A DNA stretch of 64,000 nt from Terriglobia bacterium (GCA_963695545.1 OY968796.1:2656001-2720000); one strand, 5' to 3'. Counted from the stretch's first letter, positions 720 to 46,571 are shown. The notes: a model not told the origin generated them from the sequence alone. Made by a program: numbers and translations.

Positions 720-2252
720 ATGAATATGAATCGAAGAGAATTTCTGGCCTCGGCCGCGGCCCTCGCCGCGGTCCGCGCGCGTCTCGGCCGGCCGCAATCG
801 CCGGAGCCATCGCACGGATTTCCGGCGTCGGTCTTGCGAAACGATTCCTCCTACGTTGAGGACCCGCCCGTTGCCGGCTACCACTGGGCTTCGGCCAGCG
901 CTTACGAAGCGTTCCAGGACATGAAGTTCGGCATTCGCATTCATTGGGGCATTTATTCCATCTGGCATCGCGGAGCGGAGTCGTGGCCGTTCCTGCCGAT
1001 GTCGTTCGATGACCGGCAGACCTACAACAGCCTTTACAAAACCTGGAACCCCGCGGGCTTCGACGCAGATGCGTGGATGGATGCATTCAAGGAAAGCGGC
1101 ATGAAGATGTTTGCCTTCACCACCAAGCACCATGAAGGTTTTTCGATGTTCGACACGAAGACCAGGGTCAAGAACCGCGCAAACTGGACGGCACCAGGCG
1201 GTCCGGCGATCGAATCGTGCGATCTCTCCTACTCGATCATGGAAACTCCGTTTCGCCGCGATGTCGTGAAGGAACTCTGCGACGCGGCGCACAAACGCGA
1301 CATCAAGATCGATCTCTACTTTTCTCATCCGGATTGGTATGACGCAGACTTCCGCCCGTACGTGCAGCATCCGCTGCAGGTTCCGTCCTCGGCGCAGTTG
1401 CAAATCCCGAGTGATATCGCGAGAACGCGGCAAATTTACGACGATCATGCGGTGATCGTTGCCGATCCAACCGATGCGGAAGTGACGCGCATGATGGAGC
1501 GGCATCGCGCGCAGCTTGTGGAGTTGCTTACCAACTATGGAAAGATCGACATGATGTGCCTGGACATGTATCTCGGTCCGCGCGTCTGGCCGGAGATGCG
1601 CAAGACGGTGCTGAAACTTCGCGAGATACAACCCGACGTGATGCTGCGCAATCGGGGCATCGGCGATTACGGCGATTACTACACGCCAGAGCGCGTGGTT
1701 CCCGGCTCGAAAGGATCCTCGGACAAGCCGTGGTTTTGTATTTATCCGCTTGGCACGGATTTCTCATATGAAGCCGACGCCTCGAAATACAAAGGCACGC
1801 AGTGGATTATTCAGAATCTCGCGGACACCGTGGCCAAAGGAGGCGGCCTGATGATCGGAGTCGGCCCCAGCGCGTACGGAGAATTTCACCCTGAGCCGAT
1901 CCGGCAAATGAAGGGCGTTGGCGCGTGGCTGAAGGTCAACGGCGAAGCCATCTACGCGACTCGCCCGCGCGACGGCACGGATTGGTCCGAAGGCGATTCG
2001 ATTCGCTACTCCAGATCGAAAGATCGCCGGTTCGTTTACGCGATCCTCACTCAATGGCCGGGGACACAACTGAAGTTGAAGTCCGTGCAGCCCAAAAGCG
2101 GTTCTGAAGTGACGCTCCTGGGATCGAACGCCGCGCTCACGTGGAACTTCGACTCCGCTCTCGGAACGACGATTACGCTGCCCGAAAGTTTGCAGCAGCC
2201 TGCAAACCGGCCGTGCGAATACGCCTGGTGCTTTAAGATCGAGGCGATCTAG
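720..2252 (+). CDS. Tat-exported alpha-L-fucosidase, GH29
   Basis: NRREFL twin-arginine signal; KFGIRIHWGIYS, FTTKHHEGF, LYFSHPDW, ELLTNYGKID and GAWLKVNGEAIYATRP motifs; AGGAG upstream. Confidence 0.9.
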   Translation: MNMNRREFLASAAALAAVRARLGRPQSPEPSHGFPASVLRNDSSYVEDPPVAGYHWASASAYEAFQDMKFGIRIHWGIYSIWHRGAESWPFLPMSFDDRQTYNSLYKTWNPAGFDADAWMDAFKESGMKMFAFTTKHHEGFSMFDTKTRVKNRANWTAPGGPAIESCDLSYSIMETPFRRDVVKELCDAAHKRDIKIDLYFSHPDWYDADFRPYVQHPLQVPSSAQLQIPSDIARTRQIYDDHAVIVADPTDAEVTRMMERHRAQLVELLTNYGKIDMMCLDMYLGPRVWPEMRKTVLKLREIQPDVMLRNRGIGDYGDYYTPERVVPGSKGSSDKPWFCIYPLGTDFSYEADASKYKGTQWIIQNLADTVAKGGGLMIGVGPSAYGEFHPEPIRQMKGVGAWLKVNGEAIYATRPRDGTDWSEGDSIRYSRSKDRRFVYAILTQWPGTQLKLKSVQPKSGSEVTLLGSNAALTWNFDSALGTTITLPESLQQPANRPCEYAWCFKIEAI

Positions 2253-2257
2253 GCGTC

Positions 2258-3391
2258 TCATTTCTTAGGAAACGCTTTCCCCAGAGCCGCGAGCTGATCG
2301 AGGAACGGCTGGGTGATCGTTCCGTCGAGTTCGACCGGAACGTCCCACGTGACGGAGCCGCCGTAATCCCTGATCACTTTGGTGTAGGCCAAGACTTGAT
2401 CCGTGGTGAAGCGAGGCGTGCCGCGGCCCCAGGTTTCCCCGAGAAAACTGAGCATGTGAATTTGCGTGCCGTCCACGCGGCCGTTCACTTGCCGCGTCAC
2501 GCTGACCAAATCAACTTTATTGATTTCGCCGGCGGTGAAATCCTCCTCGGGGCTCACTGAGAGGATGCGATATACCACGCCGGGATTGAACGCCACGCTC
2601 GAATCGGGGTTGCCCGCGCGCGCCGCAGCCGCGAAGCTCGCGAAATTCGGCGCGTTGGCGCCGCGATACATCGAATTGGGAAAGTAGCAGCCGTCGAACC
2701 ACCAGCCGACAACTTTCGTGCCCCAGCGTTTTGACCAATCGGCGATGATCATCTCCCACTTGCGCTGGAAATTCTTGTTTGGATACGGGCCGTTCAGCCA
2801 TTCAAGTGCGGCTTTGGCGTCATTGTCTTGGTTGGGCGCGCCGGAAGGGAGATAGACCATCAGCTTGATGTCGCGCCGGCGCAGCGGCTCGTAGAAATCC
2901 GCGATCAGATCCCGGCGCGAGCATTTGCTCGCCTCGATTCCGGTAATCTTGTCGTACACCGAATTCGGAGAAGCGTAGTAACCCGAGTTTTGGCCGATGC
3001 TGATCTGATAGTGGCCCGCGCCGACGGAATCAAGCCGCTTGGCCATGGCCTCGACGTCGAATCCATCCACGAGTCTGTTCCACACGTCGACGTTCATATC
3101 TAGGTTGTGGATTTTCGCCTGCCAGCCGGCGAGATAGTGCGTCATCACGCCCCAGCAGTAGCGCGGATCCTGCATCCACGCGGCGCGGCTTGATCCGGGA
3201 TAGAGCGCTTGCGGCGGCGGACCGACGTCAAGCGGCGGGGAGGAAACGGGATCGGCGGGTTTCGCGTCGGTTGGAGGCGACGTCTGCGAGCTGCCCGCGG
3301 AGGGAAATGCACGCAGGGGAAGAGCGCTCGCGGCCACAGCAGCGCTCGTACCGATCATCCAATCGCGGCGCGATATTTTCCTGAGGCCCAT
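2258..3391 (-). CDS. Tat-exported glycoside hydrolase, GH29/fucosidase-like TIM barrel
   Basis: SRRDWM Tat signal; RRDLIADF, IKLMVYLPS, RWGTKVVGWWFDG and AFNPG motifs; GGAG RBS upstream. Confidence 0.65.
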   Translation of the reverse strand: MGLRKISRRDWMIGTSAAVAASALPLRAFPSAGSSQTSPPTDAKPADPVSSPPLDVGPPPQALYPGSSRAAWMQDPRYCWGVMTHYLAGWQAKIHNLDMNVDVWNRLVDGFDVEAMAKRLDSVGAGHYQISIGQNSGYYASPNSVYDKITGIEASKCSRRDLIADFYEPLRRRDIKLMVYLPSGAPNQDNDAKAALEWLNGPYPNKNFQRKWEMIIADWSKRWGTKVVGWWFDGCYFPNSMYRGANAPNFASFAAAARAGNPDSSVAFNPGVVYRILSVSPEEDFTAGEINKVDLVSVTRQVNGRVDGTQIHMLSFLGETWGRGTPRFTTDQVLAYTKVIRDYGGSVTWDVPVELDGTITQPFLDQLAALGKAFPKK

Positions 3392-3640
3392 GGGTATTTG
3401 CTCCCATCTCGATCTGCACGAGAGACCCTTACTCGCGTGCCAGAGTCGGAAGACGTGCCGTCGCTATATAGAGACGCTGGGGGAGGCCGCGAACGTTTCG
3501 TATTTTCTGAAAGCTTCGTTTTGGAGTCTGAAACTTTCGATCTGCACCTTAAAAAGTTACGGGATTCGAGCGCGGACTTGTGATAAGCAGAGATGTTGCA
3601 AACTTCAGGGCCCTGCCCGGAACGGGACGGCGACGCGAGA

Positions 3641-6064
3641 ATGGACCGAGACCCCGGATCAATCGACAAATCGAAGAGAAGGAAAATTGTTCGAGTATCC
3701 TCATTGATCCTCGCTGCGGTCCTCGCCGCTCTCGCGATGTCGGGCGCGGGACTGAGCACGGCGCGCGCCTCGGAACTCGACGACGATTGGGCCGCAATCC
3801 AGAATTTCCTCGGTGGGCTGAAGGGCGTGGTCACCACGCCGCCCGAGGGAATTGTGAATCAGCGCTACAGCGCCGGCTTGCTTATGGGCAATGGCGATAT
3901 CGGCGTCGTCGCCGGCGATACGACTTCCGATCAGAAATTTTATTTCGGCAAGAACGATTTCTGGGGCACGGCGCCCGATAACACCCATCCCGAATACCGG
4001 CCGGGTGTGCTCTCTCTCGGCGGGCTCACGATCAGTTCGCCCACGCCGAGCCCCAATCCCGATGCCGTTTATCGCATGGAGCAGGACATCCTCCACGCGC
4101 AAGTGACCACCACGATGCAGCTGGGCAACACCGTGGTCACGATGCGCTCGTGGACCGCGGATACCGACAACGTGTTCATCACGGAATTTTCGAGCGCAGC
4201 CGGCAGCGCGGCCGTTCCGATCAACGTGCAGCTGTGGATTCCACCGAACAAAGTTTATCCCTATGCGAGCGGCGAATCGGATGGCGCTCTGTGGATCACG
4301 CGCACAAATAATTTCTCGGGCGCAAACGATTTCATCGCTCGCGCCGCCATTGCCGTGCGTTTGCTGGGCACGCAATTTTCATCTCCCACGACTGGCGACG
4401 GCACCGCCAGCGGCACTTTCACGCTCGCGCCCGGAGTGCCGGTTCGCCTGGTGGCCGTGTTTCGCAGCGACGCGCGCACCGGACCCGCCGGTCCGACGAC
4501 GGACGCTTTGAGGCAACAGGCGCTCGCAGCCGCGGCGAGATCGAACACACCTGCCGTCGATGCATTCTGGGCAGGGCACCTCGCGTTCTGGAAAAGCTAC
4601 TGGCTGCGCTCGTACGTTCGCGTTTACGACGACCTGCTCGAGAAGTATTACTACGGAGCGCTGTATGTGCTGGGCTCGTCGACGCGGCCACACAAATTTG
4701 TGCAGACTCCGATGTTTGGCCCGTGGGTGACGACCGATATGTCCAAGTGGGGCGCGCGGTATTTCGACAATTACAATGTGGAAGCGCCGTATTACGGAAT
4801 CTTTTCCGCGAATCGCCCGGATTGGATTTTGCCTTACACCAATTTCGTTTTCGCGGAAGAGCCGTTTCAGCAGAACTACACGGCGATTGCGGGTTACAAG
4901 GGCGTGGCGTACACGCGCAGTTTTCCGCCGTTCGATCAGTATGCTCCGCGACCCGCGCCGGTGTCGATCGCGGAGGGCAAGGACTACACCAGATTCGGCT
5001 CAAGCGCCGATCAGAAGTCCGACGGCACGTTCCTCACGATTCCGGCGATTTGGTATTGGGAGTACACGCGCGACGATGTCTATTTGAGGAAGCGTCTGTA
5101 TCCGCAGCTCAAGGCGCTGGATGCTTTTTGGCGCGATTTTATGGTTTGGGATGGCAAGCGCTACGTGATCGAGGGCAGTTCGGCGCACGAAGGGCTGCCG
5201 GTGGACACCAATCCCAATCTCGATCTCGGATTTTTCCGGAAAGTGGAGAAGACGCTGATTGAAGCGAGCGGCGTGCTGGGCGTCGATTCCAATATGGTGC
5301 CGGTGTGGCGCGACGTGCTCGCGAAGCTGAGCGCGTATCCCACCGAGACGTACAACGGCGTGGAAGTTTTCACCATCGCCGAAGTCGTGAACAACGACAG
5401 TCATCGAGTGTTTGAGCCGTCGGGACAGCCGATCGACATGGAAGGCGTGGTTTTCCCCGGCGAAGACCTGGCGGTCGGCGGCGATCCGAAACTTTTGAAG
5501 ATCGCGATGGACACGCTTACGCAGATGAATTCCTGGGGTTCGACGCCGGGCTCGAACAGCACCAACGGTTTCCAGAAGGAATTTCCGATCGCCGCGCGCG
5601 TTGGTTGGCCGGGCGACGATCTGCTGGTGAAACTTCGCGCGGCGATCCTTTATCACTGGCGCGAGAGCAACCTGACGGTGGCGCATCAATCCGGCGGCAT
5701 CGAAACGGCCGGCACGATGGAATGCATCGACTCGATGATGCTTCAGCACGAAAACGGCGTGCTGCGCATTTTCCCGGTGTGGCCGACCGACAAGGATGCG
5801 ATGTTCAAGCGGCTGCTGGCGAAGGGCGCGTTCGAGGTCTCGAGCGAAATGAAAAATGGGGCGATTCCTTACGTCGACATCACGAGCGAGAAGGGCGGGG
5901 AATTGACGATGCAGAATCCGTGGCCCGACGCGAAGCCGACGATCGAGCGAATCGATCCCGCGACGCGCGCGAAGATCGCTCGCGTGAGTTACACGATGGA
6001 TGCCGGCAATTTGGTATTCACGACCAAGCCCGGCGAACGATATTTGATCACGCCGCAACATTAA
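3641..6064 (+). CDS. Secreted GH95-like (alpha/alpha)6 glycoside hydrolase
   Basis: Signal peptide; LLMGNGDIG, HLAFWKSYW, NYNVEAPYY, MMLQHENGVLRIFPVWP and FKRLLAKGAFEVS motifs. ORF opens at 3593; ATG 3641 preferred, start uncertain. Confidence 0.7.
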   Translation: MDRDPGSIDKSKRRKIVRVSSLILAAVLAALAMSGAGLSTARASELDDDWAAIQNFLGGLKGVVTTPPEGIVNQRYSAGLLMGNGDIGVVAGDTTSDQKFYFGKNDFWGTAPDNTHPEYRPGVLSLGGLTISSPTPSPNPDAVYRMEQDILHAQVTTTMQLGNTVVTMRSWTADTDNVFITEFSSAAGSAAVPINVQLWIPPNKVYPYASGESDGALWITRTNNFSGANDFIARAAIAVRLLGTQFSSPTTGDGTASGTFTLAPGVPVRLVAVFRSDARTGPAGPTTDALRQQALAAAARSNTPAVDAFWAGHLAFWKSYWLRSYVRVYDDLLEKYYYGALYVLGSSTRPHKFVQTPMFGPWVTTDMSKWGARYFDNYNVEAPYYGIFSANRPDWILPYTNFVFAEEPFQQNYTAIAGYKGVAYTRSFPPFDQYAPRPAPVSIAEGKDYTRFGSSADQKSDGTFLTIPAIWYWEYTRDDVYLRKRLYPQLKALDAFWRDFMVWDGKRYVIEGSSAHEGLPVDTNPNLDLGFFRKVEKTLIEASGVLGVDSNMVPVWRDVLAKLSAYPTETYNGVEVFTIAEVVNNDSHRVFEPSGQPIDMEGVVFPGEDLAVGGDPKLLKIAMDTLTQMNSWGSTPGSNSTNGFQKEFPIAARVGWPGDDLLVKLRAAILYHWRESNLTVAHQSGGIETAGTMECIDSMMLQHENGVLRIFPVWPTDKDAMFKRLLAKGAFEVSSEMKNGAIPYVDITSEKGGELTMQNPWPDAKPTIERIDPATRAKIARVSYTMDAGNLVFTTKPGERYLITPQH

Positions 6065-10539: not shown

Positions 10540-10811
10540 CGAAGCCTCCTTGCTTCACTTCATCGGATCGCAACTTGGATCCACCCCGATACCGCTCGAT
10601 CAAATTTCGCGCTAAAGAACAACAGTTGAAAAGTGTGTTTCAGCGCTTGAAACAACACGTTCAGCGGTTCTTCCCGCCGGTTTTGCGATGCGGAAGAACC
10701 GGCCCCGGACAGCGAACGCGGTAATCAGGCGCTTGCTCGCACCCGCAGCCATTGCTAGAATCCGTCTCCTGGCCCGGCATGCGAGATACACACCCAACTT
10801 TTCTGGGGCGA

Positions 10812-10900
10812 AATCTAGTTCCGGTGACGCATGGTCCACAAGTTAATTGGGGATACCGTGGGGCTACTCGGAAGATACATGAAAGATACGCGGAAGATAC
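10812..10900 (-). promoter_or_regulatory. Operator/promoter upstream of the TonB receptor: five GTATC-like units at 11-bp period, CCCAATTAACTTGT, TAGATT -10-like box
   Basis: GATAC/GCTAC on plus strand at 10852, 10863, 10874, 10885, 10896; inverted copy at 12634-12722. Confidence 0.75.
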
Positions 10901-10974
10901 TTGCGGTGGTATATTGAGGGCCGATTTTGCCGATCGGAGCCGGTCTTGAGGCCGGGGCGAGAGCGTAGCGGGCT

Positions 10975-12447
10975 ATGAATATCACGCAAGCTCCTGGAAC
11001 CACAGAACTTGGCGGGCCTCCTCCCGAGGAGATTCAGAAGGAGTTAACCCGGCTTATCCATTCGAAAGCGTTTCGCCACTCGGCCGCCCTGCAGCGATTG
11101 TTACAGTACTTGATCGGCAGAGCCATCGAGGATCCCTTCGGGGACGTCAAGGAATACACCATCGGGACCGAGGTATTCGATCGAGGTCCCGGCTACGATC
11201 CCCAGACCGATACGATCGTCCGGGTTCAAATCCATCGATTGCGACTGAAAGTAAAGGAGTACTACGAATCGGAGGGGATCAACGACCCGATTTTCGTGGA
11301 CATTCCGAAGGGTCACTATATTCCCACGTTCGAGAGCCGGTCGGTTGCGGTTCCTAAGGCAAGCCAAACGAATGTCTCTGCCGAAACCATCACAACGCCT
11401 ATCGGGGGCCTTGACGCGGGTCCGAAGGAAGCGACACGCCCTGCATTTTTCACGCGAGGTGTTTTTCTGATCCCCGTGATCATGTTGATCTTTGCATCGG
11501 GAATTATTCTGGGCACGCGATGGGAACAGTCGCGGGTCTTGGCGACGAGCGATGCAATATCGAACCGCGCGGCATCAGCCGGCCTTGGCACGAGCGATGC
11601 GGCGGCGAGTTTCTGGAAAAGTTTTCTTGGCAGCGATTCTGCGCCGGTACTGGGATATGCGGACGCGGTCTATCTGGTTGACGGGGCGCAGGACCTGTTC
11701 CGATTCAGGCGCGGTGCGAGCGACAACCAAGGCACGCTGGTCGAACCTCATTTGGCTGAAGAATTCGCGTCCAGCCCATCGCTGGTCAAGCAGGCCGGTC
11801 CGCTGTATTACGAGGACGGCAACACGGGGACGGGAGATCTCGAAAGCGTCTTCGTCCTGACGCGGCTTTTCACGCAAATGGGCGTGCAAATGACGGTGAA
11901 GCGCTGCCGGCTGATGACCATAGACGACTTGAAGCAGCACGACGTCATTTTGCTGGGCTCGCCGGAGGAGAACGACGCGGTCGCGCAGCTGCCGCAGGTC
12001 GCGGATTTCGTGTGGACTCGACTAAATGTGCCCGGTCCGTGGAAGGGAGAATTCGTAAACAGCCATCCGCAACCGGGGGAGCGGCTTACGTACCAAACGG
12101 AACGCGATCCGAACACGCAGGAAGTGACGGCAGATTATGGCCTGATCACGCTTGAGCCGGGCGCGCTGCCGGGGCGATATATCGCAATTCTGGGCGGACT
12201 CGATACATCGGGCGTGGCGGGGTCGGCGCAATTCTTGACGTCGCCGTCACACATGTCCGAGCTGGAAGCGCGGCTGAAATCTCTTAGCGGGTGGGCGGGT
12301 GATGGTCCACCGCCGTCGTTTCAAGCGTTGCTGCGAGTGGCAGTGGAGAAAGGGCACGACGTTCTGGGAGTTCAACTAATAACCGTGCATCTGACGACCC
12401 CGGACAAAAACAGCGTGGGAACCACGCCGAACTCGGGCACTAAGTAG
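10975..12447 (+). CDS. Putative membrane-anchored one-component transcription regulator (N-terminal wHTH-like domain, one TM helix, extracytoplasmic domain)
   Basis: SKAFRHSAALQRLLQYL..KEYTIGTEVFDR..DTIVRVQIHRLRLKVKEYY..IPKGHYIPTF N-terminal domain; TM segment VFLIPVIMLIFASGIILG. Regulator function is inferred. Confidence 0.7.
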   Translation: MNITQAPGTTELGGPPPEEIQKELTRLIHSKAFRHSAALQRLLQYLIGRAIEDPFGDVKEYTIGTEVFDRGPGYDPQTDTIVRVQIHRLRLKVKEYYESEGINDPIFVDIPKGHYIPTFESRSVAVPKASQTNVSAETITTPIGGLDAGPKEATRPAFFTRGVFLIPVIMLIFASGIILGTRWEQSRVLATSDAISNRAASAGLGTSDAAASFWKSFLGSDSAPVLGYADAVYLVDGAQDLFRFRRGASDNQGTLVEPHLAEEFASSPSLVKQAGPLYYEDGNTGTGDLESVFVLTRLFTQMGVQMTVKRCRLMTIDDLKQHDVILLGSPEENDAVAQLPQVADFVWTRLNVPGPWKGEFVNSHPQPGERLTYQTERDPNTQEVTADYGLITLEPGALPGRYIAILGGLDTSGVAGSAQFLTSPSHMSELEARLKSLSGWAGDGPPPSFQALLRVAVEKGHDVLGVQLITVHLTTPDKNSVGTTPNSGTK

Positions 12448-12633
12448 CGGCAGTAAAACCGGTCTAGCCGGGCGAAAGAGCTAAGTTGTGGACTCCGGAA
12501 TTTGCCTCGCTGAGCTCTGTTATCTCTCTCGTTTATAGCGAATTAGACGCGATTGACGTAGGTCTGTGGCGACGCGTTGGCTCGCGGCGAAAACTGCGCT
12601 GCGTATGCGGAATAGCGCACTTCGGCGCGCGAA

Positions 12634-12722
12634 GTATCTCTCGCGTATCTATCGCGTATCTCCCGGGTATCCTAGCGGTATCCCCAATTAACTTGTAGGC
12701 CGTGGTCCACAAGAACTAAATT
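12634..12722 (+). promoter_or_regulatory. Operator/promoter upstream of the DUF5696 gene: five GTATC units at 11-bp period, CCCAATTAACTTGT, TAAATT -10-like box
   Basis: GTATC at 12634, 12645, 12656, 12667, 12678; 21 identical bp (CGGTATCCCCAATTAACTTGT) shared with the reverse complement of the 10.8-kb copy. Confidence 0.75.
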
Positions 12723-12902
12723 CCGCGCGCAAACCTGAGCGTGTCTCGCACCTTGAGCGATGGTGAACTTGGACGCGGGATCTTGTGCAGGCGGGCATTT
12801 GCTCGAAGCGTTCAACATTCTGGAGCGAATTCGGTAGAAAATTGCCCACGCGGGGGAAGCACCGGCCTGGCGCTCCTTATCCCCATTCGGCACGGGAGAT
12901 TC

Positions 12903-15095
12903 ATGATGCGGCACCGCGTTGTGTGGCTTTGCGCTCTGGCTTCTGTGTTGGCGGTCTTGCCTGCGGCGGCTCAGAACTCGCTGCAGCCTCCAGCGCAATC
13001 GCCTCCACAGACGCGCGCGCAATGGGGCGCACCGGACGTGAGCGTGACGCATGCCGCAGGGCAGTGGACGATCGCAGGGAAGAAAAATCAGGTCGTTTTG
13101 AACGAATCGGATCTGGCGGTCAGCGTTACGGCCGAGGGCGGTGTCACGTGGAAAATGAAGCCCTCGCAAGACGACGACATCCTGGTCGCTTCGCATGGCG
13201 AATTGTTTCACGTCGCGCTCAAGAGCGCGCACCACATCGAGATCGTTCCGTACGACACAGGCTACAAGACCGGCGTCAAGATCACGCTCTCCGATTTCCA
13301 CGAGAACGGAATGCTTTACAAGGGCCAGCCGCTTGATCTGGTGCTCTACCTCACGATCTGCCTCGAAAATCCGAATGAAGACCTGGTGATGACGGCTGTC
13401 GCGAGCGAGCACGAAGCCGACGTGCGCCTGCTCGATTGGCCGACGGCGATGGACGCCAGCGACGTTGACTTCACCGTGCTCTCGAATGGCGAAGGCACAC
13501 TGGTGCCGCGCACCTGGCCCACGAAATTTCTGCCCGACAATATTTTCACGGGCGACGGCGCCGCCGAGGACGCGAGCGTAATCGAAAGTCATCTGATCGA
13601 GTCGTGGTCGATGTCCTGGTGGGGCTTTGAGAAGGGCCCGGCGGCGATGATGGTGATCGTCGAAACGCCGGACGACGCGGCGTATCAATTCGAGCATCCC
13701 GCGGGCGGCCCAACCGTGATCGGTCCGCAGTGGCGCGATCAGCTGGGGCGCCTCGCGTATCCGCGCAGCGTGCGCATGTGTTTTTTTCCGACGGGCAATT
13801 ACGTCACGCTGGCGAAGCGCTACCGGCAATACGTGATCGACAGCGGACTATTCGTTTCGCTGAAGGAAAAAATCGCGCGGCAGCCGCTGGTCGCGAATCT
13901 GATCGGCGCGGGCCACGTGGGCGAGCAGGCGCTGCGCAATATCCGGCCCGGTGCGTGGCAATACGATCCCGATCATATCGACGTCGATTATCGCGTGAAC
14001 ACATTCGACGATCTGGCGAAGGGTTTGCAATACTGGAAAGATCAGGGCTTCAACAAAATGATCGTCACGTTGTCCGGATGGCCGTACTACGGCTACGACC
14101 GCCAGCATCCCAACGTTCTTCCGCCCGCCCCGCAGGCCGGCGGCTGGGATGGTTTGAAGCGCTTTTTCGACGCCGCGCTGGCGCTTGGCTACACGCCGAT
14201 GCTTCACGATCAGTATCGCGATTACTACACGGACGCGCCCTCGTGGGATCCGCAATTCGCCGTGCATGAAGAGGACACCATCACGCCGTCCACAACATTC
14301 CCCGGTTCGCGCTTTGAGCACTGGAAAGACGGCTACATTCCGATGATGGATCACTGGAACGGCGGCGCGCAGAGTTACATTACGCCGTCGCTGGTCCTCG
14401 GGAACGTGGTCAGCAATTACGAGCAGATGTTCGCGCACGGCATTCATCCGGAAGGCTCCGGCCTCGACGTCTTCGGCTACGTTCCGCCGGATCGCGATTT
14501 CAATCCCGAGCATCCCGCCACGCGCACCGACGGAATGAACGCGCGCGCGGCGGCATTCATCTGGGCGCGTGTACATCTGGGAATCGTCGGCACCGAAGCC
14601 GGTTCCGATTGGGTGATTCCTTATGTGGACATGTGCACGCCGCACGCGTTCGGCAAGGCAATTCCCGTGCCGCTTTACAACCTCGTCTATCACGATGCCA
14701 TCGTGACCACGACAACCGGCAACTCGATGTACAGCGTTCTGCTCGACGAGGGCATCAATATGACGCGGCCTAATCCGAACGCAGGCGCCGGCGGTCCCGG
14801 CGCCGCGCCCGGTGCGCCCGGCGCTGCGGTCCGCGCGCGCGGAGGCGCGACCGAAGCCGACGCCGCGCGCCGCGCCGCTTCGCACCCGACGTTCACCGAT
14901 CCCGCGCAAGTCCTGAAGCTCGAAAAAGACGCGTTGGCACTACAGGAACGCGTCGGCCTGCTGGAAATGACCAATCATGAATTTCTCGACAAGAATTATC
15001 GCGTCGAGCGCACCACGTTTTCCGACGGAACCACAGTCACGGTGGATTGGGACAAGATGACGTACGACATCAATCCGCCGCTTCCGGCTCAATAA
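12903..15095 (+). CDS. Secreted DUF5696 / GH129-like glycoside hydrolase
   Basis: GGGAGA RBS then MMRHR signal peptide (start 12903 or 12906); GNYVTLAKRYRQY, GWPYYGYDRQHP, AGGWDGLK, HDQYRDYY, VPLYNLVYHD and TTFSDGTTVTVD motifs. Confidence 0.7.
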   Translation: MMRHRVVWLCALASVLAVLPAAAQNSLQPPAQSPPQTRAQWGAPDVSVTHAAGQWTIAGKKNQVVLNESDLAVSVTAEGGVTWKMKPSQDDDILVASHGELFHVALKSAHHIEIVPYDTGYKTGVKITLSDFHENGMLYKGQPLDLVLYLTICLENPNEDLVMTAVASEHEADVRLLDWPTAMDASDVDFTVLSNGEGTLVPRTWPTKFLPDNIFTGDGAAEDASVIESHLIESWSMSWWGFEKGPAAMMVIVETPDDAAYQFEHPAGGPTVIGPQWRDQLGRLAYPRSVRMCFFPTGNYVTLAKRYRQYVIDSGLFVSLKEKIARQPLVANLIGAGHVGEQALRNIRPGAWQYDPDHIDVDYRVNTFDDLAKGLQYWKDQGFNKMIVTLSGWPYYGYDRQHPNVLPPAPQAGGWDGLKRFFDAALALGYTPMLHDQYRDYYTDAPSWDPQFAVHEEDTITPSTTFPGSRFEHWKDGYIPMMDHWNGGAQSYITPSLVLGNVVSNYEQMFAHGIHPEGSGLDVFGYVPPDRDFNPEHPATRTDGMNARAAAFIWARVHLGIVGTEAGSDWVIPYVDMCTPHAFGKAIPVPLYNLVYHDAIVTTTTGNSMYSVLLDEGINMTRPNPNAGAGGPGAAPGAPGAAVRARGGATEADAARRAASHPTFTDPAQVLKLEKDALALQERVGLLEMTNHEFLDKNYRVERTTFSDGTTVTVDWDKMTYDINPPLPAQ

Positions 15096-15153
15096 GTCGA
15101 GCCGTGGCCGCCGCTGGCGCTTGAGGCGGGACTGCATGAAGAAAAGGATGGCC

Positions 15154-16863
15154 ATGGACAACGCAAGCGATCACTCCCCGTCGAGACGCAAATGGCTGGG
15201 TATCGCAGCAGGGGCTTCGATAGGGTCGGGTATTCTGGCCGCCGCCGGCGCGGCCGCTGACCCGGCCAAGCGCGCTCCTTCCAACGACAGCGATCTCGGC
15301 GCGCGCGTCTACAACATCCGCGATTTCGGCGCCAAGGGCGACGGCTCGACGCTCGACACCGCCGCGGTGCAAGCCGCGATCGACGCCTGCACAAAAGATC
15401 AGGGCGGAACGGTGCTGGTTCCCGCGGGCGTGTTCGTGATCGGCACGGTCGAGCTCAAGAGCAACGTCACGCTGCGACTCGCGGCCTCCGCAAAATTGCT
15501 CGGCACGGCCGACGGCAAACAGTATCACGCCGCCGACGCGATCCCGCTCAGTGGCGATTCCACGCTCGGCGATGGAAACGTCGGGCTGATCTTCGCGGTG
15601 AAGGCCGACAACGTTACGATCGAAGGCCATGGCACGATCGACGGCCAGGGAGCGCAATTTCATTCGCCCACCCGCGGCGTTCTGCCGCCCGCCGGCATCG
15701 GCGGCGACAATCGCCCGTACCATCTGTTGTTCTATCAGTGCAAGAACCTGACGCTGCGCGACATTTTTCTGAACGACAGCGCGTATCATTCGGTGCGCAT
15801 TATCGAAAGCACCTTCGTGAAGGCCGACGGCCTGCGCATCTACAATCGTGTGAACGGCAACAACGACGGCTTTCACTTTATTAGTTGCCAGCACGTACAC
15901 GTCAGCAACTGCACGGTGCAATCCCAGGACGATGCCTGCGCTCTTTTCGGCAGCTGCAAATTCATCACCATTACGAATTCTTCGTTCAGCACGCGCTGGT
16001 CGGTTTTTCGCTTTGGCGGCGGTGAAGCCGAAAATATCGCCATCTCCAATTGCCTGATTTACGAAACCTACGGCTGCCCGATCAAGATGCGCTGCGGTCC
16101 GAATTCGCGCTTTGAAAATATCTCGTTCTCCAACCTGGTGATGACCAACGTCACCGGCCCTATTTCCATCGGCCTCGGCGATCCGCCACGCCGCCCTGGG
16201 GCGGCCTCCGCTTCCGAGACAGGCATGGCCCCGGGCATTCCGGGTATCGTGCGCAACATTTCTTTCAGCGGAATTCTGGCCACCGTGGTGGTCCCCACCC
16301 AAGTTCCCGGCGTGCCTTTCACGAGCGACTACAATCCGGGCGAAATAAAATCCTGCATCTCGCTGAATGGAGCGGGAGAGAACTTCATCGAGAACATTCG
16401 CTTCGACGATGTCCACGTGACCTTCGCCGGCGGCGGCACCGCGACGGATGCCGCCGTCCGCGATGTGCCCAAGGTCGCCGGCGAATACTACGAAGCAGGT
16501 GTTTTCCCCGCGTATGGGATTTATGCGCGCCGGGTGCGGGGATTGTCTCTTTCCAACGTGCGCTTCGATGTGAGCGCGCCCGAGCTGCGGCCGGCCATCG
16601 TTTTCGACAACGTGGTGGACGCCGCCGTGAACGGTTTGAGCGCGCAAGGCAATTCCCAGTCCGAATCGCTGTTGCGCTTCATCGAAACGCGCGACGTCTT
16701 GCTGACTGCCTCTCGCGTGCTTACGCCATCCGGCGTGTTCCTGCAGGTCGAAGGCGCCGGCAGCAGGGACATCACCGTGGACGGTGGTGATTTGTCGAAA
16801 GCCGATGAAGCGCTGGCTTTCCGCGGCGATGCAACCGAAGACTCGGTGAAGCTCCGGAGCTAA
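15154..16863 (+). CDS. Tat-exported GH28 (pectin-lyase fold) glycoside hydrolase
   Basis: SRRKWL Tat signal; YNIRDFGAKGDGSTLDTAAVQAAIDAC, ELKSNVTL and NNDG..QDDA motifs. Start may be 15136, 15148 or 15154. Confidence 0.8.
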   Translation: MDNASDHSPSRRKWLGIAAGASIGSGILAAAGAAADPAKRAPSNDSDLGARVYNIRDFGAKGDGSTLDTAAVQAAIDACTKDQGGTVLVPAGVFVIGTVELKSNVTLRLAASAKLLGTADGKQYHAADAIPLSGDSTLGDGNVGLIFAVKADNVTIEGHGTIDGQGAQFHSPTRGVLPPAGIGGDNRPYHLLFYQCKNLTLRDIFLNDSAYHSVRIIESTFVKADGLRIYNRVNGNNDGFHFISCQHVHVSNCTVQSQDDACALFGSCKFITITNSSFSTRWSVFRFGGGEAENIAISNCLIYETYGCPIKMRCGPNSRFENISFSNLVMTNVTGPISIGLGDPPRRPGAASASETGMAPGIPGIVRNISFSGILATVVVPTQVPGVPFTSDYNPGEIKSCISLNGAGENFIENIRFDDVHVTFAGGGTATDAAVRDVPKVAGEYYEAGVFPAYGIYARRVRGLSLSNVRFDVSAPELRPAIVFDNVVDAAVNGLSAQGNSQSESLLRFIETRDVLLTASRVLTPSGVFLQVEGAGSRDITVDGGDLSKADEALAFRGDATEDSVKLRS

Positions 16864-41519: not shown

Positions 41520-42551
41520 ATGGAACTGGGAATGATCGGGCTGGGCCGAATGGGAACCAATATGGTGCGACGCCTGCGGAAGGCCGGCCATCAGTGTGTT
41601 GTCTATGACGTTCAAGCGGAAGCCGTGCAAGCGCTCGCCAAAGAGGGAGCGATCGGCGCGACGTCGCTTGAAGATTTCACGAAGAGACTGAAATCCCCGC
41701 GCGCGATCTGGATGATGGTGCCGGCTGCCGTGGTCGATCCGACGCTCGCGACTCTTGTCCCGTTGCTCGAACGCGACGACGTGGTTATCGATGGCGGCAA
41801 CTCCTACTATCATGATGACCTCCGCCGCGCCGGCGAATTGAAACCCAAGGGCATCCACTACGTCGACGTGGGAACCAGCGGCGGCGTGTGGGGCTCGGAG
41901 CGCGGATACTGTTTGATGATCGGCGGTGAACAATCCGTCGTCCAGCGCATCGATCCCATCTTCGCCGCGCTCGCCCCCAACATCGACGAAGCGCCGCGCA
42001 CGCCGGGCCGCGAAAAACTCGGCGGCACCGCCGAACACGGCTATCTGCACTGCGGTCCGAGCGGCGCGGGCCACTTCGTCAAAATGGTCCACAACGGCAT
42101 CGAGTACGGCATGATGGCCGCCTACGCGGAAGGTTTGAACATCCTTCATCATGCCAACGCCGGAAAACAGAAGCGCACCGTCGATGCCGAGACCACGCCG
42201 CTGCGCCACCCCGAGCTCTATCTGTACGACTTAAATCTCGCCGACATCGCCGAGGTCTGGCGCCGCGGGAGCGTCATCGCCTCGTGGCTGCTCGATCTCG
42301 CGGCCATCGCGCTCCTCGATAGCCCGGACCTCGGGAAGTACGCCGGCCGCGTGTCTGACTCGGGCGAAGGCCGCTGGACGATCGAGGCGGCCATCGACGA
42401 ATCGGTTCCGGCGCCGGTCCTGAGCGCCGCGCTGTACGAGCGCTTCAGTTCGCGCGGCGAGGCCGACTTCGCCGACAAGTTGTTGTCCGCGCTTCGTTTC
42501 CAATTCGGCGGCCACAAGGAAAAAGCCGACGTGCAGAAGGCAGGTGGCTAA
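41520..42551 (+). CDS. gnd: Decarboxylating 6-phosphogluconate dehydrogenase (short type)
   Basis: [45 protein letters not shown] and FGGH motifs. Confidence 0.93.
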
Positions 42552-42672
42552 TCACCGCCTCGCGCCGCGCGCCATGGCGTTCCGCCAATCGCACCGTTGT
42601 TTTCGATTGTCTAAGTAGCGCGCGGCGCCTCGAGTGCGGCGTTTCGCAAGACTCACGCGCCAAGTTGAAACC

Positions 42673-43980
42673 ATGAGCAGCCAGAAGTTGACCGTCGATG
42701 CCGAGCTGGAAAAGCTTCAGCGCGATTCGTTCAAATATTTCTTGCATGAGGCGAATCAAGCCAACGGGCTGGTGATCGACAAAAACGAAGCGGGCTCGCC
42801 TGCGAGCATCGCCGCCGTCGGCTTTGCGCTTGCGTGTTACCCGGTGGCCGTTGAGCGCGGATTTATGCCGCGCGCCGCGGCGATCGAGCGAACGCTCGCG
42901 ACACTGCGTTTTTTTTGGAACAGCCCGCAAGGCCCCGAACCGGACGCGACCGGCTATCGCGGCTTTTATTATCATTTTCTCGACATGCACACCGCCCGGC
43001 GCGCCTGGCAGTGCGAGCTGTCCACAGTGGACAGCGGCTTTCTGCTGGCCGGTGCATTGGCCGCTGGAATTTATTTTTCCGCCGACACGCCGGACGAAAG
43101 CGAAATTCGCACGCTGGCCGACGCGCTCTACCGGCGCGCGGACTGGAATTGGGCGCAAGACGGCGGCGCAACGGTAACGCACGGCTGGAAACCTGAAGGC
43201 GGATTTCTGAAGTATCGCTGGCAAGGCTACGACGAGGCGCTGTTGTTGTACGTCCTCGGCCTCGGCTCGCCGACTTTTCCGCTGCCCGAAGGAAGCTATT
43301 CGGCGTGGGCTTCCACTTATCAGTGGGGAAAGTATTGCAGACAAGATTATCTTTACGCCGGACCGCTGTTCACGCACCAGCTTTCGCATGTGTGGATCGA
43401 TTTTCGCGGCATCCAGGACGCGTTCATGCGCGAGAAGGGCATCGACTATTTTGAGAACAGCCGCCGCGCAACTTACGCCCAGCAGCGATACGCGATCGAG
43501 AATCCACTCAAGTTCGCAGGCTATGGCCGCAATTGCTGGGGAATTACCGCAGGCGACGGCCCCGGCCCGGCCACGATTAAGGTAAATGGGATCGTGCGCC
43601 AATTCTTCGATTACGAGGGACGCGGCGTGCCCTACGGACCTGACGATGGAACGATCGCGCCGTGGGCGGTGGTCGCGTCGCTGCCGTTCGCGCCCGAGAT
43701 CGTGTTGCCCGCGCTCGACCACTACATTCACCGGGCTAAATTGGCCGAACATAACTCCTACGGCTTCAGAGCGTCTTTCAACCTGACGTTCCCCCAAAAG
43801 GTTCATGACGAGCGCGGCTGGATTTCGCGATGGCACTTTGGGATCAATCAAGGTCCGATCGTTTTGATGATCGAAAATTATCGGACGGGATTGTTGTGGC
43901 AATTGATGCGAAGCTGTCCCTACATCGCGAGCGGCTTGCGCCGCGCGGATTTTCGCGGTGGCTGGCTGCAAGCATTGTGA
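42673..43980 (+). CDS. Glucoamylase-like / GH144-like (beta-1,2-glucanase family) protein, cytoplasmic
   Basis: SIAAVGFAL, GYRGFYYHFLD, ELSTVD, GYDEALLLY, GPLFTHQ and GINQGPIVLMIENYRTG motifs. Confidence 0.8.
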   Translation: MSSQKLTVDAELEKLQRDSFKYFLHEANQANGLVIDKNEAGSPASIAAVGFALACYPVAVERGFMPRAAAIERTLATLRFFWNSPQGPEPDATGYRGFYYHFLDMHTARRAWQCELSTVDSGFLLAGALAAGIYFSADTPDESEIRTLADALYRRADWNWAQDGGATVTHGWKPEGGFLKYRWQGYDEALLLYVLGLGSPTFPLPEGSYSAWASTYQWGKYCRQDYLYAGPLFTHQLSHVWIDFRGIQDAFMREKGIDYFENSRRATYAQQRYAIENPLKFAGYGRNCWGITAGDGPGPATIKVNGIVRQFFDYEGRGVPYGPDDGTIAPWAVVASLPFAPEIVLPALDHYIHRAKLAEHNSYGFRASFNLTFPQKVHDERGWISRWHFGINQGPIVLMIENYRTGLLWQLMRSCPYIASGLRRADFRGGWLQAL

Positions 43981-44073
43981 GGTGAATTTGGTGCGATAAT
44001 CATGCTGACGATTTCGGATGGGCAGGCAGTGGGACAAATTTGGGCCGTGAATCCGTAAGCGAGGGCATTCCCC

Positions 44074-46503
44074 ATGGCCAATTTTTGGCGCGACACTGTT
44101 CACGGTTTTCGTCTGCTGCGAAAAAATCCCGCGTTTGCCTGCGTCGCGATCCTGGCGCTGGCGCTCGGCATCGGCGCCAACACGGCGATCTTCAGCGTGG
44201 TGTACGGCGCGATGCTGGCTCCTCTTCCGTACCCTGATCCCGACAGACTTATGGTAGTGTGGTCCACGACGCAAGGGAATCACACCGAGGTTTCTCCCGC
44301 CGATTTTCTGGACTGGAAACGCGACAATACCGTGTTCGAGTCCCTGGTAGCCCTGACTTTTGGTCGGGTCACTCTGTCCGACTCGACCGGCGCGGAACAG
44401 GTCTCGATTTCGTACGGGACACCTGACAACCACAATACATTCGGAGAACGAATGGTGCGGGGACGCGATTTCCTGCCGGAAGAAGGCGAGCCGGGCAAGG
44501 ATCACGTTACCGTTCTCAGCTACGAATTGTGGCGGGATCGCTTCGGCAGCGATCCGAATATTCTCGGTAAAACCATTCGACTCGACCGCGAGCCGTACAC
44601 CGTGATCGGTGTAAGTCAACCTGCGCCTACCGACCGCGAAAGGAAGGGACTGGGCGTGCCCCTTTCCTTCCCGCCAGAACAGATCCGGCGTGACAATCAC
44701 TATCTGATCGTGGAGGGCCGGCTGAAGCCGGGCGTAAGCGTCGCGCAGGCCAACGCGGAAATGGCGGCGATCGTTCAGCACATTGACGAGACCTATCCCG
44801 AATCGAGCAAGGGCTGGGGCGTTCAAGTGGTACCGCTCAAGAATGCGTGGCTGGACCCCAACCTGCGTGCGAGTCTCTTGTTGCTTATGGTTGCGGTGGG
44901 ATTCGTCCTGTTGATCGCATGCACGAACGTCGCGAATCTGCTGCTTGCGCAGGGCGTAGCGCGCCAGAGAGAAATTGCCGTACGTGGCGCGCTGGGAGCC
45001 ACGCGCGGTCAAGTGATTCGACAGTTCCTTACGGAAAGCTTGTGGCTGGCGGCGATCGGTGCGGGCCTGGGCATCGCTCTGGCGTGGGCGCTCATAAAAA
45101 TTGTGATGGCGTTGGTCCCGCGCTACACGTTGCCGATGGACAAGCCGATTGGTTTGCAGTACCCCGTTTTGCTGTTTAGCCTGGCAATCACGGTGCTTTC
45201 GAGCGTGCTGTTCGGGTCCGCGCCCGCATGGCAGGCTTCGCGCCTGAATTTGAGCGATGCACTGAAGGAAGGAGGACGCTCGGCCGTCGGCACGCGCCGG
45301 CATTGGCTGCGTCGCGCGCTGGTTGTGACGGAGTTTGCGCTCGCGCTCACACTGCTGGCCGGCGGCGGAATGGCGATTCATAGTTTTTGGAAACTGGCGA
45401 ACGTGGATCTCGGTTTCCGGAAGGACCACGTGCTCACGTTTTATCTTCCCTTGCGGCGGGGCGAACTTAAGGCTCCGGAACAAATCGAAACTTACTATCG
45501 CCAGTTCCTGGACAAAATCTCGGCGCTGCCGGGTGTAACGTCCGAGTCGGCCGCGACGGGGATGCCTGTGTACGGCCCGGGATTTGACGGCATGCCTTTT
45601 AGCATCGCAGGCCAGGCGGCTGGCGAATCTTCGTCGCAGCCGGTCGTCGGTTTCAGTATGGTGACACCGGCTTACTTCGATACCTTTGGGATTCGCATCG
45701 ATCGAGGCCGCGCTTTCACCGAGGAAGACACTGCGGGAAGCGCCCGCGTCGCTATCGTCAGCGAGCAGTTCGTAAAACGATACCTTTCCGGTCGCGATCC
45801 GCTGACTGAGATCGTCAACGCTGGCCAACCTGTCGTCGGCGCCATGCAACCAGGTCCGCCCGTCGCATGGCAAATCGTGGGGGTCAGCCACGACGTCCGA
45901 AATCGCGGCGTACGGAACGAGGACCTCCCCGAAATGTACGTGCCATTTTGGCAATGTCCTTGGCCTTGGGCGGTTATGGCTGTGCGCACGGCGAGCGATC
46001 CGGCTAGCTTGAGCGAGGGCATCGCCAGCATCGTGCATTCCACGGATCCCGATCTGGCGATGGCTGAGGTGATGACCATGGACCAGCTGGTAGATGAATC
46101 CATGGATTCGGAGCGCTTTGAAGCATTGTTGTTCGGAAGCTTTAGCGGAGTGGCGCTGCTGCTGGCGGCGCTGGGAATTTATGGCGTGATGGCGTTCGAG
46201 GTGGAGCAGCGAACGCACGAAATTGGATTGCGGATGGCGCTGGGCGCGGGGCGCGCGGAGGTGCTCGCGCTTATATTGAAGGACGGGATGATCCAGGCGA
46301 TTGCCGGACTCGCGTTGGGATTCGTGGGCGCATTTTTTGTGGGGCGGGCGATGCAAAGCCGGTTGTATGGGATTGGCGCGATCGATCCGGTCGCGCTCGG
46401 CGGAGTGGCGGCGGTGCTGCTGGCCGCGGCGCTGCTCGCATGTTACGTGCCCGCGCGGCGTGCGACGAAAGTCGATCCGATGGTGGCGTTGCGCGAAGAG
46501 TGA
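44074..46503 (+). CDS. ADOP-type duplicated ABC permease (MacB/FtsX-like)
   Basis: LALGIGANTAIFSVV, LLIACTNVANLLLA, REIAVRGALGA, RTHEIGLRMALGA and PARRATKVDPMVALR motifs. Confidence 0.92.
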   Translation: MANFWRDTVHGFRLLRKNPAFACVAILALALGIGANTAIFSVVYGAMLAPLPYPDPDRLMVVWSTTQGNHTEVSPADFLDWKRDNTVFESLVALTFGRVTLSDSTGAEQVSISYGTPDNHNTFGERMVRGRDFLPEEGEPGKDHVTVLSYELWRDRFGSDPNILGKTIRLDREPYTVIGVSQPAPTDRERKGLGVPLSFPPEQIRRDNHYLIVEGRLKPGVSVAQANAEMAAIVQHIDETYPESSKGWGVQVVPLKNAWLDPNLRASLLLLMVAVGFVLLIACTNVANLLLAQGVARQREIAVRGALGATRGQVIRQFLTESLWLAAIGAGLGIALAWALIKIVMALVPRYTLPMDKPIGLQYPVLLFSLAITVLSSVLFGSAPAWQASRLNLSDALKEGGRSAVGTRRHWLRRALVVTEFALALTLLAGGGMAIHSFWKLANVDLGFRKDHVLTFYLPLRRGELKAPEQIETYYRQFLDKISALPGVTSESAATGMPVYGPGFDGMPFSIAGQAAGESSSQPVVGFSMVTPAYFDTFGIRIDRGRAFTEEDTAGSARVAIVSEQFVKRYLSGRDPLTEIVNAGQPVVGAMQPGPPVAWQIVGVSHDVRNRGVRNEDLPEMYVPFWQCPWPWAVMAVRTASDPASLSEGIASIVHSTDPDLAMAEVMTMDQLVDESMDSERFEALLFGSFSGVALLLAALGIYGVMAFEVEQRTHEIGLRMALGAGRAEVLALILKDGMIQAIAGLALGFVGAFFVGRAMQSRLYGIGAIDPVALGGVAAVLLAAALLACYVPARRATKVDPMVALREE

Positions 46504-46571
46504 CGCTTCGCGGATTGGCCGGAGCCCGCGCGAAATATTTTCGCGCGCCTCGAGTTGGAACATCGTTCGCA

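Follow-up and report, generated by a model that had tools for sequence, protein, structure and literature searches.

How might a glycan-uptake locus be switched by a protein that is known only as a hypothetical one? Acidobacteriota are abundant soil carbon degraders, and the question is raised in concrete form by a stretch of 64,000 nucleotides from a Terriglobia bacterium (GCA_963695545.1 OY968796.1:2656001-2720000; in the following, the window). There, a 490-amino-acid (aa) open reading frame (ORF) at 10975-12447 on the plus strand, here called P0001, lies between a minus-strand TonB receptor gene and a plus-strand pair of DUF5696/GH28 (glycoside hydrolase family 28) genes. An initial annotation, made from the sequence alone, had described inverted copies of one motif on either side of this ORF and proposed that it encodes a one-component activator, which senses a sugar outside the cytoplasm and switches on both arms of the locus. 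Our search of an incomplete literature library retrieved neither a description of this protein family or its operators, although members could be listed in File S1 of PMC10269533, nor a paper on the switching of acidobacterial TonB-receptor/glycosidase loci. Based on the analyses below, P0001 is probably a membrane-anchored one-component activator that acts from two 11-bp-phased operator arrays.

The arms that bracket the gene (10808-10902 and 12632-12726) are 95 nt long each and 78% complementary according to the repeat finder, and the unit positions given initially proved exact. In a blastn search of the 4.16-Mb genome, the two arms match each other with an E value of 2e-15, and the next best match has an E value of 0.9. 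Read towards its target, each arm contains five GTAKC units with an exact 11-bp period; on the plus strand, these start at 10852, 10863, 10874, 10885 and 10896 in the left array (as GATAC/GCTAC) and at 12634, 12645, 12656, 12667 and 12678 in the right one (as GTATC). Both arms have a sixth unit, TTAAC, 10 bp past the fifth (10846-10842, minus; 12688-12692, plus), directly followed by a -35 hexamer (TTGTGG, 10841-10836, minus; TTGTAG, 12693-12698, plus) and, after an 18-bp spacer, by a -10 box (TAGATT, 10817-10812, minus; TAAATT, 12717-12722, plus). The block CCCAATTAACTTGT(G/A)G, described initially as following the five units, is present and can be refined into the sixth unit, which had been missed, and the -35 hexamer. 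Each copy is, as had been noted, oriented alike to a downstream target, the TonB receptor gene (minus) or the DUF5696-GH28 genes (plus). A generic sigma70 promoter scan lists neither array promoter because of their weak -35 hexamers. A lone degenerate array unit (12521-12540) precedes the right array by 114 bp. We discarded an RNA element as a candidate, since Rfam yields nothing at E <= 1 between 10400 and 13100 and the phased units upstream of the promoter account for the conserved letters.

The initial annotation had also missed that the left array overlaps what appears to be the regulator's own promoter. A predicted extended -10 element, TG-G-TATATT (10907-10915), is located on the opposite strand just beyond the distal unit of this array, and the corresponding -35 region lies inside the array. 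A perfect TGnTATAAT occurs at this position in 9 of the 18 loci with >50% identity, and three others lack that flank. As a polymerase at this promoter would overlap the left array, autoregulation of the gene seems likely from the sequence.

To what extent do homologous loci share this layout? We collected 80 genome and 80 metagenome loci, of which 147 remained after identical proteins had been dropped; homologs occur in the cultured genera Granulicella, Edaphobacter and Terriglobus, and a sample of 60 relatives contained no full-length ortholog. Beside close homologs (>60% identity), the same units recur in three to six copies, and across 11 upstream and 12 downstream sites the units are invariant and the spacer letters variable. 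Distant homologs (41-48%) are accompanied by longer, looser arrays of GTAAC, GAAAC, GTTTC and GTATC, which end in the same GTAAC-T register and have a [TC]ANNNT box after a further 17-18 bp. The -35 hexamer, whose first base is contacted by the last unit, is weak and variable (TTG, TAG or TGG). A pattern of the last two units, written after the flanks had been viewed and counted over loci that are kin, so that the figures are descriptive, matches 138 times in 188,322 outward-facing flank strand-bases and 23 times in 2,751,948 strand-bases elsewhere in the loci (~88-fold denser); 115 of the 138 flank matches have the [TC]ANNNT -10 box at 17-18 bp, compared with 5 of the 23 others. The anticipated 11-bp arrays beside homologs are therefore borne out: the array-plus-promoter module is present at 102 of the 147 loci, and at 88 of the 117 in which both flanks measure at least 450 bp. 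It tracks the target, being found upstream of the regulator gene where the locus is divergent and downstream where it is in tandem, and most module-bearing loci have one array, before a TonB receptor. Comparison thus supports an activator, whose binding and activity we infer, but the two-armed layout of the window belongs to a minority: the module occurs on both sides of the gene at 11 of the 102 loci and on one side only at 91.

A weight matrix, trained only on 109 homolog sites and scanned over the window's genome, scores the two window sites at 68 and 67; the next two rows are these sites shifted by one base, and elsewhere in the genome the top score is 18. The predicted regulon therefore consists of the two window promoters. 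A wider regulon was rejected, given that the genome holds no third matrix site and none before the GH95-like/GH29 genes (720-6064). Among the 101 module-facing first genes scanned (seven sites without a usable ORF and one duplicate reference excluded), 79 encode TonB receptors, five GH28 proteins, one a glucuronoyl esterase and four members of other families. The remaining 12 are without a family, and five of these are homologs of the DUF5696 gene. The target receptors form at least three groups that are <55% identical. A close homolog of the GH28-like gene is found in 10 of the 19 loci with >50% identity as opposed to 6 of the 141 distant loci. An attempt to name the ligand from such neighbors failed, most distant-clade neighbors having no Pfam family. 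In 54 loci of the distant clade, the gene after the TonB receptor encodes a secreted protein of ~500 aa without a Pfam or PDB match (e.g. L101:11051-13039); its DDGW motif is reminiscent of GH27/GH36 enzymes, and it may represent an undescribed glycosidase family. A second recurrent neighbor resembles GH116 (DUF608) weakly, with a score below the cut-off (L048:231-2420, L086:11224-12573).

Is P0001 itself a DNA-binding protein? As a whole, it has no Pfam and no NCBIfam family and no PDB match with phmmer, and a full-length profile retrieves chance rows only. We identified 819 homologs among 8000 scored candidates; the named ones are 'hypothetical' proteins of Acidobacteriota, in line with the initial description of the family. 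The ESM Atlas likewise returns unnamed Acidobacteriota clusters, one of them with Trans_reg_C in 22% of its members, which we regard as a lead only. An AlphaFold model built on a 120-sequence alignment features a confident N-terminal domain, a disordered linker, a long helix (165-189) and a further confident domain (~209-473). Folded alone, the N-terminal domain forms three helices and a hairpin with a predicted local distance difference test score (pLDDT) of 94.5 and is predicted to be a winged helix of the OmpR/PhoB type, so the DNA-binding fold postulated at the outset finds support. Such winged helices account for 13 of the 15 top VIA rows, for instance PrrA (Z 7.8), GlnR (7.0), PhoP (6.8), CpxR (6.6) and CadC (6.2), and the matches at Z 6-7.8 have root-mean-square deviations (rmsd) of 3-3.9 Å over 77-89 residues; TcpP (Z 5.7) and ToxR (Z 5.0) follow in lower rows. 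The best Foldseek match is SaeR (probability 0.97, E 0.1), and a 26-sequence family profile searched against the PDB retrieves SaeR DNA-binding domains only, with weak E values of 0.7-0.9. Six of these 26 family members match Trans_reg_C weakly, below the cut-off (best E 0.0005). In SaeR, the residues H198, R199 and R201 are critical for DNA binding (PMC5083920). They appear to correspond to H87, R88 and R90 in the recognition helix of P0001 (aa 81-99), which are nearly or fully invariant in the family.

If P0001 reads the arrays, related proteins with a different recognition helix would be expected to have a different box. The window's genome encodes three paralogs that have only the N-terminal domain in common with P0001, and the one scanned has malectin domains outside. 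These proteins (C1:2054311, 2788871 and 921939; L256-L258) combine the winged helix with a membrane helix and malectin-type outer domains, and each is encoded beside a TTAAC-type array facing a divergent gene. The one at 2054311 seems frameshifted near its end, matching to relatives ending near residue 466. Across the malectin subfamily, whose recognition helix reads VRVTAH, (C/T)TAAC/TTCAC units are found at 11 bp and in the same -35 register in 16 of 23 loci, and the GTAWC module in none of the 23. One 4-mer dyad stands at period 11 in 10 of 19 loci of this subfamily, compared with at most one locus at any other period. In a third subfamily (helix VHARQ), 4 of 5 loci contain TCAC spaced at period 11, the only period at which it recurs. 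That the pentamer differs with the recognition helix in three clades, as the initial annotation had anticipated, speaks for a box that is P0001's own. When 77 diverse paralog loci were scanned singly for periodicity, with 20 crude shuffles each, the outcome was mostly uninformative. By eye, about 7 of 11 loci of a subfamily with a VTAxEIRK helix (L284-L294) seem to share an upstream motif of approximately TTRCnGYAA followed by GAnCTTA, which would be an inverted, not a direct, arrangement; also by eye, 3 of 6 loci of a VTASDVRR-helix subfamily (L023, L299, L300) have CTACCGTTAG and later CTAACGTTG upstream.

What, then, might be sensed? The proposed order of winged helix, membrane helix and periplasmic domain agrees with a single hydropathy peak in 135 of 141 homologs. 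Lysine and arginine are richer before the membrane helix than after it in 93 homologs, with the reverse in 16, so a topology with the N-terminus inside and the C-terminus outside is likely. The predicted outer domain is most similar to BcsB (VIA Z 11.3, rmsd 3.8 Å, 167 residues) and to the N-terminal accessory domains of GH67, GH84, GH115 and GH20 enzymes (Z 6-9.5). The outer domains of ToxR and CadC are absent from the 50 VIA rows for this domain, which excludes nothing. As a homodimer, it obtains a complex score of 0.85 compared with 0.00 for the best control, with at least 93% of contacts shared between runs and a pLDDT of at least 86; the mark applied to this score is reached by 20 of 30 known pairs and by 1 of 23 single chains. 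The predicted interface includes a conserved glycine loop (282-287), D236, R377 and T411, and our guess would be that a ligand site is located there. Gene context and fold resemblance together incline us, with some reserve, to the view that the outer domain senses a sugar directly.

On this basis, we propose the following mechanism. The cytoplasmic winged helices would bind head-to-tail, one per pentamer and all on one face of the DNA, such that the proximal protomer would cover approximately -41 to -36 and recruit RNA polymerase to the weak -35 hexamer. The activator would thereby turn on the TonB receptor and the two glycosidase-like genes, while occupancy of the left array would block or tune its own extended -10 promoter. 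The signal would be a breakdown product of the imported glycan, bound by the periplasmic dimer.

Several observations weigh against this proposal. With regard to the DNA-binding domain, the fold scores are middling (Z 6-7.8), Foldseek finds nothing at E <= 0.001 for either model, and P0001 scores 13.6 bits against Pfam Trans_reg_C (PF00486), whose cut-off is 26.2. With regard to the arrays, the enrichment of the module overstates independence, as the pattern is post hoc and the loci are kin. Furthermore, the pattern is missing at 45 of the 147 loci, including 29 of the 117 with long flanks. Many pattern-negative loci have short flanks, and 15 of the 45 belong to a clade with a VRVE helix (E for Q), where each of the 12 loci viewed shows a variant array that keeps the register, with C-initial units in 11. 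Two further subfamilies of paralogs (11 and 6 loci) have no shared 11-bp dyad (3 of 11 and 3 of 6); the 11-bp period is hence not family-wide, and the phased array is common, not universal, in the superfamily as judged from these loci. Covariation between helix and box extends to three clades, too few for a code. Lastly, no ligand can be named since the partner enzymes differ between clades, and the outer domain resembles accessory domains that are non-catalytic.

This last point leads to the alternative that retains most credit, even if we consider it rather unlikely: activation from the arrays as proposed, but with an outer domain that responds to envelope stress or to another protein, for instance the TonB receptor through its periplasmic N-terminal extension. 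It is compatible with the operator part of the proposal, and trans-envelope signaling is known from FecA-FecR. Nearly all target receptors have an N-terminal CarboxypepD_reg extension, the domains of BcsB, S-layer proteins and glycosidases that resemble the outer domain are non-catalytic, and no sugar site was identified in the predicted domain. On the other side, regulators whose outer domains are 74-85% identical to that of P0001 adjoin receptors that are 25-29% identical to each other, beside which the GH28-like gene is kept at 71-74% identity. In paralogs, moreover, this position is taken by malectin domains.

A repressor placed over the -35 hexamer and released or cleaved upon the signal, i.e. 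the same protein on the same sites with the opposite sign, we regard as improbable. The contact of the last unit with the first base of the hexamer would suit it, and so would the left array, which covers the upstream region of the regulator's own promoter, where binding would most simply repress. All units, however, are upstream of the -35 hexamer and none covers the spacer, the -10 box or the start, the weak and variable hexamers suit an activator, and the proximal unit is placed like activating ToxR or TcpP protomers. It is still less probable that the arrays bind a different, unlinked response regulator of the OmpR family, with P0001 as a passenger. GTAAC-type pentamers at 11 bp do resemble OmpR-family boxes such as that of SaeR, and gene and flank are inherited together; but no third site is picked up by the matrix anywhere in the genome, the box changes with the P0001-type helix among paralogs of the same genome, and the module stays <700 bp from the gene through rearrangement. 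The idea that the arms form the terminal inverted repeats of a mobile element with the gene as cargo, finally, is strongly disfavored and scarcely worth entertaining: inverted copies do bracket one ORF, but no duplication is visible outside the arms, P0001 has no transposase or recombinase match, both arms are found in only 11 of the 102 module-bearing loci, the window's genome has a single such locus, and unit number and distance from the gene vary between loci, only the phased letters being conserved.

How does the proposed activator compare with known systems? SusR is a membrane regulator of polysaccharide utilization loci (PULs) in Bacteroidota, and a membrane-tethered winged helix acting on phased repeats beside a weak -35 hexamer follows a well-known logic. 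A close parallel in operation is offered by ToxR and TcpP, which act at the ompU and toxT promoters of Vibrio cholerae and likewise consist of a winged helix in the cytoplasm, a single membrane helix and a domain in the periplasm. Their protomers bind in tandem, one turn apart, with the nearest at about -41 to -35 (ToxR covers -40 to -35 and TcpP -41 to -35; PMC12802830, PMC10629549), as we would expect for P0001. In contrast, ToxR has an N-terminal β-sheet (PMC10629549), where the P0001 model has no strands but a helix (aa 17-28). ToxR recognizes the shape of the DNA at loose, AT-rich sites; the P0001 arrays are sharply defined sequence repeats with up to six or more units. Nor is P0001 directly followed by a small, co-oriented gene for a periplasmic partner like ToxS or TcpH (bioRxiv 2022.04.08.487670), as in the co-component systems ToxR/ToxS and VtrA/VtrC: the next gene starts 456 bp on, has its own array and promoter and encodes a 730-aa glycosidase homolog. 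Its predicted outer domain resembles those of BcsB and glycosidases, and its putative targets are glycan-uptake genes, which would further set it apart from ToxR and TcpP. CadC of Escherichia coli has the same single-chain arrangement of helix-turn-helix, membrane helix and periplasmic domain (bioRxiv 2022.04.08.487670) and a DNA-binding domain of similar fold, but differs in signal and targets. P0001 is thus ToxR/CadC-like in its working, yet outside the strict ToxR/CadC family, given its score below the PF00486 cut-off, the missing sheet, the missing ToxS-like gene and the different-looking outer domain.

SaeR, the best profile and Foldseek match of the N-terminal domain, also has apparently corresponding basic residues in its recognition helix and a similar box, a pentamer repeated at 11 bp (PMC5083920). 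Unlike SaeR-type response regulators, P0001 is membrane-anchored, has neither receiver nor kinase and is associated with longer arrays. The hybrid two-component systems of Bacteroidota PULs (PMC10269533) are inner-membrane sensor-regulators beside a TonB receptor and glycosidases, a role that P0001 would share; P0001, however, is of unrelated architecture, with no kinase, receiver or propeller, and its DNA-binding domain is N-terminal and OmpR-like. It falls under the definition of a transmembrane transcription regulator, i.e. at least one predicted transmembrane region plus a predicted DNA-binding domain (PMC10269533), the latter by fold prediction only, as the Pfam models on which that survey relied stay below their cut-off for P0001.

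Table 1. Predicted and annotated features of the P0001 locus, in window coordinates
Feature	Coordinates	Strand	Basis
Regulator gene P0001, 490 aa: winged helix, membrane helix, periplasmic domain	10975..12447	+	ORF, AlphaFold model
Predicted DNA-binding domain, aa 17-121, OmpR/PhoB-type winged helix	11023..11337	+	models with pLDDT >90; VIA; Foldseek
Single predicted transmembrane helix, aa 162-180	11458..11514	+	hydropathy 2.53; model helix
Predicted periplasmic sensor domain, aa 209-473, BcsB/GH67-GH84-GH115-GH20 accessory fold, homodimer	11599..12393	+	VIA; complex prediction
Left operator array: five GTAKC at 11 bp + TTAAC at 10 bp	10842..10900	-	sequence; homolog conservation
Right operator array: five GTATC at 11 bp + TTAAC at 10 bp	12634..12692	+	sequence; homolog conservation; matrix
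Predicted TonB receptor promoter: TTGTGG, 18 bp, TAGATT	10812..10841	-	sequence; homolog -10 counts
Predicted glycosidase-pair promoter: TTGTAG, 18 bp, TAAATT	12693..12722	+	sequence; matrix; homolog counts
Predicted extended -10 promoter of the regulator, TG-G-TATATT	10907..10915	+	conserved position in close loci
Putative target 1: TonB-dependent receptor, 1322 aa	6571..10539	-	Pfam OMP_b-brl_4, CarboxypepD_reg, TonB barrel
Putative target 2: secreted DUF5696 protein	12903..15095	+	Pfam; PDB 5wzn
Putative target 3: GH28-like beta-helix protein, start codon uncertain	15121..16863	+	Pfam GH28 E 1e-24; PDB

Regarding the putative targets, the closest solved relative of the DUF5696 protein (730 aa) is an alpha-N-acetylgalactosaminidase (PDB 5wzn, E 9e-64), which we take to be a GH129 enzyme, and the protein itself has a weak Pfam GH129 match. 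The PDB matches of the GH28-like protein (15121-16863) are polygalacturonase-type enzymes. GH29, GH29-like and GH95-like genes (720-6064) adjoin the TonB receptor gene without an operator module; only the GH29-like one recurs, in 1 of 19 close loci. Perfect 7-bp inverted arms (TGTTTCA, 5 bp, TGAAACA; 10636-10654) in the receptor gene's long leader may constitute a second, repressor-type layer of control, and a palindrome at a similar place in three other loci (L032, L033, L117) is presumably of the LacI-operator type. Elsewhere in the window, a 1375-aa ORF without a Pfam family (42445-46572, minus) lies beside a GHL6-type glycosidase gene.

Beyond this locus, a profile of the DNA-binding domain retrieves 18,713 clusters (50% identity) at E <= 1e-10, and the domain is present in 17 of 151 sampled genomes of the phylum, with up to 19 matches per genome. 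It is also found fused to cytoplasmic TolB-like/TPR regions (a label given by eye), nearly alone, or twice per protein (L004, L011, L025, L012, L002); the superfamily is thus not confined to membrane sensors. Since the domain scores below the Pfam cut-off and yet comprises that many clusters, Pfam-based counts of membrane regulators (e.g. PMC10269533) are likely to have missed many of them.

A gene family, an operator, two promoters and a set of testable residues are now in hand, and the model is testable because homologs occur in cultured genera. As a tentative and broader conjecture, which we hold somewhat less probable than its opposite, this Pfam-invisible winged-helix superfamily could be the main glycan-sensing switch of Acidobacteriota, an independent counterpart of the hybrid systems of Bacteroides, in which each paralog would combine a swappable periplasmic sensor with a recognition helix for its own pentamer array and the BcsB/glycosidase fold would serve as a hitherto undescribed dimeric sugar receptor. 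If so, a code that links recognition helix and box would make the substrates and regulons of uncultured soil bacteria readable from sequence.

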